Shown here one piece after another: positions 31,571 through 33,210 of a stretch of DNA of 58,831 nucleotides. The DNA is taken from assembly GCA_039187085.1 (NCBI GenBank), contig JBCCZV010000006.1, positions 1 to 58,831 on the forward strand, read 5' to 3'. The stretch comes from Pseudomonadota bacterium (GTDB lineage: Bacteria; Pseudomonadota; Gammaproteobacteria; Enterobacterales; JBCCZV01). Positions within the stretch are counted from its first letter, which is position 1. Each line of letters starts with the position of its first letter. Below the pieces are notes generated by a model. The model was not told the DNA's origin. It did no database searches and saw only the letters and a list, made by a program, of their open reading frames with translations. The translations under genes and the position numbers were made by a program.

Positions 31571-32557
31571 ATGTTACGACTTTTTATGGTGTTGTTTTAT
31601 TGGTTGATGAATCCATTAAATGCGGCAAGTTTTGATTGCAGCAAAGCCAGTCGCCCTTTGGATAAAACCATTTGTCAACATGCCCCGTTAAGCGAACTGG
31701 ATGAAAAAATGGCAAAGATGTATTTTGAGTTAAGAGAGTCGCTGCCGAGCCAGCAGGTCGAATCTTTGTTAAAAGCGCAACGACAGTGGTTAAAGGAGCG
31801 GAGTCAATCGTGCAAGACAACGGATGCTGATTGTCTAATTTCGATGTATCAAAAACGCTTGGAAGCCTTACAACAGCGTCTACAAACCCATTCAGCATTT
31901 TTAGCACAACGTGCTCAACAGGCGAAAGGCTGGCAATTACAATCCGGACAAGATAAACCGCTTTGTCAGGATGTATTAGCGACGCTACAGGCTAACTATC
32001 CCACGAGTTCACCACGCTTTTGGTTTTCACCCGAAGGGAAACCCTTTAAAGCATTGGATTGGGAGGTGCTTAATTACATGCCCTACAATATTTTATTGCA
32101 AGAAGCCCTATATGAAAAAAAATTATCCCCTGAAGGTTGGCTAAAGGAAATCGACCGCCTTGAGGCCCTGAGCCAACAAGATTTTTTGTCAGGGCGAGCA
32201 GTTTTACCCTGGGATTACGATGGTAATGGGACAAAAGAGGGGTTATTGCAAGTGTCTTGGTTGCAAGATGATGGGCGTTATCATGTGCAAAACTTTATCA
32301 TAGATTCAAGTCAAAAATACTCTAAATATCAGCATTCAGCCCATGTTCGACTCTTTACGCGTGGTAAACCGCCGGTGTTATCGGGTGAAGCGGTGTTATA
32401 TCAAGACCAGCTCTATGGGTTCGTTAAGCAAGGAAAATTTTGGCAATTGCGTCAGTATTTCAGTGAGATGTATCAAAAAGATCAAGGTGTGCCCGTTTCG
32501 CCAACTCTCTGTACCTTAGCACTGACATCGGTGAGTTTAGGAGGAGAGTCATCATGA
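31571..32557 (+). CDS. Exported LprI (DUF1311) lysozyme-inhibitor-domain protein, putative immunity for RTX2
   Basis: AGGA RBS, signal peptide, ASFDCSKA...TIC...LSELD...QRQWLKER...C...CL...Y..R LprI pattern; C-domain paralogous to the next gene. Confidence 0.85.
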   Translation: MLRLFMVLFYWLMNPLNAASFDCSKASRPLDKTICQHAPLSELDEKMAKMYFELRESLPSQQVESLLKAQRQWLKERSQSCKTTDADCLISMYQKRLEALQQRLQTHSAFLAQRAQQAKGWQLQSGQDKPLCQDVLATLQANYPTSSPRFWFSPEGKPFKALDWEVLNYMPYNILLQEALYEKKLSPEGWLKEIDRLEALSQQDFLSGRAVLPWDYDGNGTKEGLLQVSWLQDDGRYHVQNFIIDSSQKYSKYQHSAHVRLFTRGKPPVLSGEAVLYQDQLYGFVKQGKFWQLRQYFSEMYQKDQGVPVSPTLCTLALTSVSLGGESS

Positions 32558-33210
32558 AAATCCTATTAGTGTTGATTGTGTTTTGTTGTACGAGCCCAGC
32601 GTGGGGCAAAACCTTTATAGTAAAGAGCGTGAGGAATAATCAGCATAAATTATGTAATGATTTAGCGGCACAATTAGAAGCGATTCATCAAGCCGGCCGT
32701 TTTGGGCAACGTCATCGTTTTCGGCCACAGGATAAACCGTTTTCATCACCGCAATGGCAAACGGAACCGAATGATTTAGGGGTGCAGTTGATTTTACAAG
32801 CACGCACTTTTCAAAGCTATAAAACTGCTGAGCAGTGGCGAGATATCATAAAAGAATACCAGTCTTATTCCCAACAGCAATTTTTAACACAAAGTACCGT
32901 GCTGAACGCTAATAATCATGACGATGATGAAAAAATTATACAATGGACAGTATACGGTAGTTGGATGAAGAATTATTTTTATGTGTCTTATGTTGTGAAT
33001 GATGAGAATAATATTGATGCCAGTTTTAATGGTATCAATGATGGTGCAAAAGCTATGACAGGAGAAATCCTGCTTTATGAAGGCAAAGCGTTTTCTTTGG
33101 ATCAATACTCTGCCACGGAAATCCAGCTTAATGAGCATTTAAAAAGTGGTTGGAGTGCAAGTAAGCTGGTTTTTAGAACAAAAATTTGTGACATGATGAT
33201 TCAACGGTAA
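32554..33210 (+). CDS. Exported hypothetical protein, putative immunity for RTX2
   Basis: Signal peptide (…SPAWG); shares KxLCxD, F.PxxKPF...W, GE..LY and terminal IC motifs with the C-half of 31571. Confidence 0.75.
   Translation: MKILLVLIVFCCTSPAWGKTFIVKSVRNNQHKLCNDLAAQLEAIHQAGRFGQRHRFRPQDKPFSSPQWQTEPNDLGVQLILQARTFQSYKTAEQWRDIIKEYQSYSQQQFLTQSTVLNANNHDDDEKIIQWTVYGSWMKNYFYVSYVVNDENNIDASFNGINDGAKAMTGEILLYEGKAFSLDQYSATEIQLNEHLKSGWSASKLVFRTKICDMMIQR

Follow-up and report, generated by a model that had tools for sequence, protein, structure and literature searches.

Peptidoglycan-hydrolase toxins with periplasmic immunity proteins are a textbook feature of type VI secretion system (T6SS) effectors and of pesticin-type bacteriocins, pesticin itself being a small bacteriocin that is imported via FyuA and TonB and carries its lysozyme domain at the C-terminus. 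Repeats-in-toxin (RTX) proteins such as CyaA and MARTX combine N-terminal or internal enzymatic cargo with RTX repeats and a C-terminal signal for the type I secretion system (T1SS), and their RTX part takes the cargo across the target membrane. CyaA and MARTX act on eukaryotic plasma membranes and have no periplasmic immunity genes associated with them, and we know of no case in which either crosses a bacterial outer membrane. The locus described here lies in a stretch of 58,831 nucleotides (the window) from an enterobacterial genome assembly (GenBank GCA_039187085.1, contig JBCCZV010000006.1, positions 1 to 58,831 of the forward strand), and consists of two small genes, P1 and P2, directly upstream of the gene for a giant RTX protein, RTX2. 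On balance, comparison of the sequences favours a reading in which P1 and P2 confer periplasmic immunity to an antibacterial RTX muramidase exported by the T1SS, and in which a domain common to both proteins, termed X, is the inhibitor module.

The first domain of P1 is an LprI module (PF07007, also DUF1311), and the earlier note on this DNA had described LprI as a lysozyme-inhibitor family. This was an overstatement, as passages of the relevant source report no experimental evidence for lysozyme inhibition by PF07007 itself (PMC7933661). The same passages describe LprI of Mycobacterium tuberculosis as PF07007 joined to an MliC domain sufficient by itself for resistance to lysozyme, and ScwA as a periplasmic protein of PF07007 only, with two disulfides, that confers no such resistance and affects how much of the lytic transglycosylase MltD is present; conserved cysteines are noted for members of the PF07007 family (PMC7933661). 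Because ScwA fails to provide resistance and MliC is sufficient in LprI, the inhibitor in P1 is more likely to be X than the LprI module. LprI proteins with signal peptides have been predicted to act as immunity proteins beside lysozyme-like T6SS effectors, according to sections of two further reports (PMC9796082, PMC12135965). Among Atlas clusters, PF07007 occurs with PliI in 89% of 53 members and with MliC in 93% of 54 members. PF07007 is proposed here to be a recurrent accessory N-terminal companion of different inhibitor modules.

P1 (31571-32557, plus strand; 328 aa from an ATG) and P2 (32554-33210, plus strand; 218 aa) precede RTX2 (33243-41915, plus strand), a 2890-aa RTX protein that is a likely T1SS substrate. 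The start of P2 overlaps the stop of P1 (ATGA) and has a strong ribosome-binding site, AGGAGG, upstream, while a similar site (AGGA) precedes the ATG of P1 and AAGGAG lies 8 nt before the ATG of RTX2, which is separated from P2 by 32 nt. Upstream of P1, a promoter-like site (TTGACA, 16 nt, TACTAT; 31452-31479, plus strand) agrees with the consensus at 10 of 12 positions, as a consensus match only, and no terminator-like site was found on the plus strand between the three genes. Because of this arrangement, P1, P2 and RTX2 look like a single operon. An alternative start for P1 is possible at a TTG at 31505, which would give a longer reading frame.

Residues 23-100 of P1 (31637-31870, plus strand) match PF07007 from end to end of its 106-position profile (E 8e-9; score 36.3 bits, cut-off 22) and contain four cysteines (C23, C35, C81 and C88, counted in the translation). 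The rest of P1, residues about 118-328 (31922-32554, plus strand), and residues 20-218 of P2 (within 32554-33210, plus strand) make up the X domains. In a single BLASTP comparison, residues 131-296 of P1 and 33-185 of P2 are 24% identical over 173 columns (E 5e-9), and an X profile described below matches P1 at residues 118-315 (E 1.8e-14). A six-frame search of the genome from which the window comes found X at the P1 and P2 sites only. Both proteins begin with 18 residues that, judged by eye, resemble a signal peptide, with a short, charged n-region, then a hydrophobic core and a c-region of small residues, and putative cleavage contexts (..LNA|AS.. in P1, ..AWG|KT.. in P2) were also recognised by eye. 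The earlier note's account of two exported proteins directly upstream of RTX2, with reading frames at just these positions, the first being LprI plus a second domain and the second that domain alone, is thus borne out, the export signals by eye. P1 and P2 are probably Sec-exported, disulfide-bonded periplasmic proteins.

The N-terminal domain of RTX2 (residues 1-300; 33243-34142, plus strand) is most likely a T4-lysozyme-like (GH24-like) predicted muramidase with an intact catalytic motif, E25-x8-D34-x5-T40, in which E25 is encoded at 33315-33317. A profile built from nine N-domain sequences matched T4 lysozyme chains (E 6.4e-7) in two stretches, one covering the catalytic region and one the C-terminal lobe, and the motif-bearing stretch aligns with the N-terminal stretch of T4 lysozyme that holds the same spaced motif, the residues of which we take to be E11, D20 and T26. 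The Pfam family Phage_lysozyme (PF00959) was matched by seven of the nine N-domain relatives (best E 3.4e-8), and the homologue in genome G364 scores 31.9 bits against a cut-off of 22.3. E25 is invariant in all nine aligned N-domains, whereas D34 is invariant in a four-sequence alignment but not across all nine. Further along RTX2, after the N-domain, RTX repeats are found (PF00353, E 5e-18), and precomputed domain assignments likewise list PF06594 and PF00353.

The pairing of this N-domain with X was followed in metagenomes, where an alignment scan recovered 212 relatives of the N-domain; the best 80 loci were kept, and 71 of these, in which the contig reaches 700 nt or more beyond the start of the toxin on its upstream side, were informative. 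Two of the nine loci dropped at this step still show a fragment of X at the contig edge. Counting as adjacent any same-strand open reading frame (ORF) that ends at most 200 nt upstream of the toxin, the neighbour was X only at 34 of the 71 loci, LprI plus X at 9, LprI only at 2 (with one more, L063, recognised by Pfam), and neither at 25. A gene for X and/or LprI thus lies directly upstream on the same strand at 46/71 loci, and at 41/61 after clustering at 90% toxin identity. When 1217 six-frame ORFs of at least 80 aa from all 80 loci were searched with the X profile, 61 matched; all 61 are on the toxin strand and none is on the opposite one, with 45 adjacent upstream, 12 further upstream and 4 downstream of or within the toxin ORF. 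RTX-type nonapeptide cores, at least three per protein, occur in 51 of the 66 toxin ORFs with enough sequence.

Two sets of metagenome loci differ in kind. At L067, L079, L089 and L094, which have neither X nor LprI, the upstream ORFs encode 153-193 aa with lipoprotein-like starts (a hydrophobic run followed by Ala/Gly-Cys) and belong to no Pfam family; they may represent a further partner family. At L030 (2375-4249), L051 (1419-3905) and L053 (7-2091), single open frames join the lysozyme-like domain to X. In L030 the toxin comes first, followed by a small number of RTX repeats, a stretch resembling a signal peptide and then X, while L051 and L053 have X ahead of the toxin domain. Such joined frames could reflect degenerate modules being read through, errors of assembly or genuine fusions.

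The same pairing recurs among 399 further genomes sampled from the same class, in which the N-domain occurs in five (G141, G232, G245, G290 and G364) and X in six (G164, G232, G245, G308, G364 and, doubtfully, G365), G141 and G308 entering the counts only. Both are present in three genomes (G232, G245 and G364) and adjacent in all three, so that three of the five N-domain-positive genomes have a same-strand gene for X and/or LprI immediately before the toxin gene. The partner is X alone in G245 and LprI-X in G232 and G364, where Pfam finds LprI in both; the LprI-X gene of G232 overlaps the toxin start by 4 nt. As earlier X profiles contained the G232 and G364 sequences, a clean profile was rebuilt from the A3 seed and metagenome ORFs only, excluding those two, and it matched the C-terminal domains of the G232 and G364 proteins with E 8e-33 and 8e-15. 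A search with a subset X alignment (A5) found one genome locus. The match in G365 (E 2.4e-4), which falls in unrelated lysine-rich membrane-like ORFs, was rejected as doubtful. With the pairing conserved across many unrelated contigs, in metagenomes as in genomes, P1 and P2 behave as cognate partners of the RTX2 N-domain, as the earlier note had supposed.

Copies of the partner genes also occur apart from an intact toxin. In Colwelliaceae bacterium MEBiC 14330, a 331-aa LprI-X gene and a 250-aa X gene are followed by a 44-residue ORF that aligns with positions 1 to 38 of the toxin N-domain before it ends, so that the gene order is that of the window with the toxin cut down to a stump. The C-terminal domain of the 331-aa protein matches the clean X profile marginally (E 0.023), and calling it X therefore rests on architecture. 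Genome G164, a single contig rated 100% complete, carries an LprI-X gene and has no match to the N-domain, and two to three X genes stand in a row at several metagenome loci. Orphans and arrays of this kind are typical of immunity genes kept against the toxins of other cells. Right after the Colwelliaceae toxin stump (locus L007, 11067-12931) come ORFs of 273 and 238 aa, the first of which resembles, at its C-terminus, two proteins of 263 and 238 aa encoded upstream of RTX1 in the window (hhalign probability 73%, E 3e-5, 60 columns). An OEP/HlyD pair comes next, and the region may be an immunity-gene island for both types of RTX cargo.

As a family, X appears to be exported and disulfide-tied. 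A hydrophobicity window places a hydrophobic N-terminal segment ahead of X in 54 of 58 X ORFs, a count that omits three hits longer than 600 aa, interpreted as fused or read-through ORFs; contig ends cut two of the four ORFs that lack the segment. The columns of C34 and C212, the cysteine pair that P2 shares with the family, hold Cys in 53 and 44 of 60 aligned rows, all other rows being gaps except for one Gly in the first column, which fits a disulfide tying together the ends of an exported domain. An AlphaFold2 (AF2) model of X from a 15-sequence alignment reached pLDDT 88.1 and pTM 0.85 and consists of three helices on an antiparallel sheet. This model found no counterpart in the Protein Data Bank (PDB) by Foldseek at E <= 0.001 (best E 0.04), and no chain with Z >= 5 by VIA-align among 48,161 representative chains (best Z 4.6), for which the tool's own note states that models with no clear match typically reach Z 7-8. 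Partial propeller blades and CarG headed the VIA-align list, at Z 4.6, and no lysozyme-inhibitor chain was among the matches listed. The X profile had one marginal match among PDB sequences, to a beta-fructofuranosidase (E 3e-4 over 73 residues), which was set aside as blade-like similarity with no functional meaning. Together, a conserved D-x-N-N-D-G stretch and the partial propeller-blade matches suggest a blade-like element in X and nothing more.

Sequence databases were equally silent on the name of X. P2 has no Pfam match at E <= 0.1, and hence none to the inhibitor families MliC/PliC, PliI, PliG or Ivy; the X proteins of L019 and L032 match no Pfam family at E <= 0.01; nothing was found for P1 or P2 in NCBIfam; and neither these resources nor the annotations of homologues supply a name. 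A word-index homologue search with P2 alone returned P2 itself only, and with the X alignment 17 proteins, among which 'hypothetical' and 'uncharacterized' were the only names. Scanning with HMMER and a two-sequence X profile found 11 of 1.84 billion representatives, a count that, judging by the later profiles, understates the family. A feature-based comparison in the Atlas pointed weakly towards a cluster containing PliI, with a score of 0.86 that lies below the bar of 0.9. The earlier note's suggestion that the non-LprI domain belongs to a new family therefore holds as far as annotation and fold comparison go: neither Pfam nor NCBIfam yielded a model, the fold searches turned up no solved counterpart, and X is an unannotated family that accompanies lysozyme-like enzymes in many environmental bacteria.

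The position of X is what makes it a candidate inhibitor. Since it fills in P1 the slot that inhibitor domains occupy in related proteins, stands alone in P2 and is the partner at most loci, X is the likely inhibitor, and is proposed to be the module that would bind and block the RTX2 muramidase. Complex prediction for the RTX2 N-domain with P2 gave ipSAE 0.00 in both runs, made without controls, and is used as evidence neither way.

The scaffold that would carry the muramidase is shared with a second RTX protein. On the plus strand the order of genes is small unannotated ORFs, RTX1, P1, P2 and RTX2, and RTX1 (25825-30792, plus strand) is a paralogue of RTX2 that is 50% identical to it over 651 aa, beginning at residue 387 of RTX1 and residue 430 of RTX2. 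A C-terminal part is also common to the two proteins, while their N-terminal regions, about 390 aa in RTX1, do not align. The locus has the look of a polymorphic toxin system because RTX1 and RTX2 share a scaffold yet differ in N-terminal cargo, and an N-terminal placement of the cargo is expected if the secretion signal is C-terminal. Besides its nonapeptide repeats, RTX2 has T1SS genes nearby (17240-20934, minus strand), about 12 kb upstream. They encode an ABC transporter with an N-terminal C39-like domain (18667-20934, minus strand; ABC_membrane, E 6e-57; ABC_tran, E 2e-37; Peptidase_C39, E 1e-14) and a membrane-fusion protein of the HlyD family (17240-18670, minus strand; HlyD_3, E 2.5e-15), beside which lies a gene for an OmpA-like protein (16054-17220, minus strand).

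Several features of the RTX1 region were noted in passing. RTX1 contains, at residues ~150-200, a long Gly/Ala-rich hydrophobic stretch that suggests a membrane-acting cargo. A 211-aa ORF (25239-25889, plus strand) ahead of RTX1 overlaps the RTX1 frame (25813-30792) by 77 nt in another frame, indicating either two genes or a frameshift in the N-terminus of RTX1. The interval between the T1SS genes and RTX1 (21568-25257, plus strand) holds three small paralogous ORFs of 135, 148 and 148 aa, none with a signal peptide, together with two paralogues of 263 and 238 aa, 32% identical, with one N-terminal hydrophobic helix each; none belongs to a Pfam or NCBIfam family, and all are candidates for genes that give immunity to the RTX1 cargo. 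RTX1 and P1 are separated by a spacer (30793-31570) that is unusually long at 780 nt, holds only a 114-aa ORF on the minus strand (30709-31053) and short broken frames, and may be the leftover of a lost module.

In the mechanism proposed for the locus, RTX2 would be exported by T1SS, its N-terminal muramidase would cleave peptidoglycan once in a periplasm, and P1 and P2, waiting in the periplasm, would block that muramidase through X. What the sequences show is the domain content of the three genes, the catalytic motif, the export-type features (by eye and by a hydrophobicity window), the operon-like arrangement and the conserved pairing; we infer binding and inhibition by X, antibacterial use of RTX2 and arrival of the muramidase in the periplasm of neighbours. 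The earlier note had reasoned that, as T1SS substrates bypass the periplasm of the producer, immunity must answer incoming toxin from siblings; this is reasonable, and it would mean that sibling-derived toxin crosses the outer membrane of its target and that immunity is needed against it. Such incoming toxin also fits the orphan copies in the Colwelliaceae and G164 and the multi-copy X arrays.

The synteny evidence applies equally to a reading in which P1 and P2 inhibit the RTX2 muramidase for self-protection only, because the N-domain, last out, may stall, be retained or leak into the periplasm of the producer. RTX2 would then not enter other Gram-negative cells, and may act on other prey or in cis. 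In RTX adhesins of the LapA type the N-terminus remains accessible from the periplasm of the producing cell, neither the Pfam scan nor the precomputed domains of RTX2 revealed a module for import or receptor binding, and we know of no route by which such giant RTX proteins cross the outer membrane, a point that speaks for self-protection and against entry into neighbours alike. However, intact orphans, whether beside a toxin stump or in a complete genome with no toxin domain, and arrays of X fit defence against the toxins of others better, and RTX1 bears different N-terminal cargo on the same scaffold, as competitive polymorphic toxins do, so that self-protection alone is considered unlikely.

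It is improbable that P1 and P2 are general periplasmic anti-lysozyme or peptidoglycan homeostasis proteins, of the MliC/PliC or ScwA kind, that are merely co-located or co-regulated with RTX2. Such a role would be in keeping with ScwA, a PF07007-only protein that, in passages of its source, modulates MltD levels with no lysozyme resistance (PMC7933661), and with the orphan LprI-X gene of G164. It is at odds with the placement of X ORFs, of which 45 of 61 directly precede the lysozyme-like gene and none is on the other strand, and with the rarity of X, found in only 6/399 genomes and beside the toxin in 3, which fits an accessory function rather than housekeeping. That X is a helper of the toxin and no antidote, serving RTX2 as a periplasmic or surface factor in maturation, activation, surface display or uptake, is very improbable: conserved adjacency by itself cannot tell a helper from an inhibitor, but T1SS substrates are not known to us to need Sec-exported periplasmic helpers, X is fused to PF07007 in the slot held elsewhere by MliC or PliI, and orphan copies survive beside a truncated toxin.

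Several observations nonetheless weigh against P1 and P2 being immunity proteins for an antibacterial RTX2. The 25 of 71 metagenome loci with neither X nor LprI upstream of the toxin have adjacent ORFs that match no Pfam families, and many of these begin with hydrophobic or lipoprotein-like segments; they may encode X proteins that have diverged, or further families of partners. In the metagenomes, the assignments to X and LprI depend on home-made hidden Markov models and on ORFs defined by the first start codon. In G290, where the lysozyme-like relative is distant (E 7.6e-4), genes for BamB/PQQ-like propeller proteins lie upstream of both copies. Orphan LprI-X genes could equally mean a role independent of the toxin, and no TolC-like gene was recognised among the window ORFs scanned. 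The RTX2 N-domain itself scores 19.9 bits against PF00959 (E 0.001), below the cut-off, and its AF2 model from a four-sequence alignment is unusable (pLDDT 38.8), so that its lysozyme fold rests on sequence profiles. The G290 locus (L018, 8310-15183) comprises two tandem modules, in which exported propeller proteins of 395 and 378 aa (46% identical) are followed by distant lysozyme-like proteins of 323 and 1110 aa, and the propellers may constitute another, unrelated family of partners for such toxins.

More ambitiously, the RTX scaffold might be an autonomous interbacterial vehicle that takes swappable N-terminal cargo, a GH24 muramidase in RTX2 and a hydrophobic domain in RTX1, across the outer membrane of Gram-negative neighbours, as a bacterial-envelope counterpart of CyaA-type translocation, with X as the founding member of a new fold of GH24-specific inhibitors spread as cognate and orphan immunity genes in environmental bacteria. 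This wider model is tentative and, taken as a whole, rather doubtful. If the reading of P1 and P2 as immunity proteins for an antibacterial RTX2 is right, giant RTX proteins, which are often annotated as adhesin- or haemolysin-like, would include widespread antibacterial weapons with swappable N-terminal cargo, given the 212 metagenome relatives, and X would be a new inhibitor family for phage-type lysozymes whose confidently predicted fold resembles none of the solved chains compared; such a family would bear on endolysin biology and on how resistance to lysin-based antimicrobials arises. The passage of a folded enzyme on a very large secreted protein past the Gram-negative outer membrane would likewise become directly testable through a defined toxin-antidote pair.

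Full-text literature searches turned up no description of an RTX protein of a T1SS that combines a lysozyme-like N-domain with genes for periplasmic immunity, and the systems that come closest each share only part of this arrangement. Pesticin and Pim of Yersinia pestis and TssI2-TsiI2, a T6SS pesticin-domain pair of Vibrio fluvialis, resemble it in that a T4-lysozyme-like killing domain acts on peptidoglycan in the target periplasm and an exported immunity protein is encoded beside the toxin, as far as sections of the two reports describe them (PMC3390615, PMC9620997). Unlike in pesticin, the domain is N-terminal in RTX2, on a 2890-aa RTX protein beside a T1SS and with no recognisable import module. 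No solved chain resembled X. Exported PF07007 proteins are likewise neighbours of lysozyme-like T6SS effectors in Pantoea hcp islands and among WHIX effectors, and they occur as orphans there too, according to parts of the sources (PMC9796082, PMC12135965). In those T6SS systems, immunity is itself a prediction, whereas the present locus involves a T1SS and a recurrent partner X, which is the only partner domain at 34 of the 46 positive loci.

In domain order, P1 follows M. tuberculosis LprI, as described in the passages cited above, and the PF07007-PliI and PF07007-MliC clusters of the Atlas, all of which run from a signal peptide through PF07007 to a second module. That module is an established lysozyme-inhibitor domain in LprI and the Atlas clusters, whereas in P1 it is X, for which Pfam holds no match. 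The likely target differs as well, being a bacterial GH24-like enzyme for P1 and P2 and an animal c-type or i-type lysozyme for proteins of the MliC/PliI type. The closest parallel on the side of secretion is CdzC/CdzD-CdzI of Caulobacter crescentus, where, in sections of the report, an antibacterial agent is likewise exported by T1SS, a dedicated immunity gene is present and siblings kill cells that lack it (PMC5380434). The Cdz toxins differ from RTX2 in being membrane-acting glycine-zipper proteins of 84-86 aa whose immunity protein, according to the same sections, resides in the inner membrane (PMC5380434). Compared with Cdz, the locus described here would pair a giant RTX protein bearing an enzymatic N-domain with candidate immunity proteins that are soluble and periplasmic.

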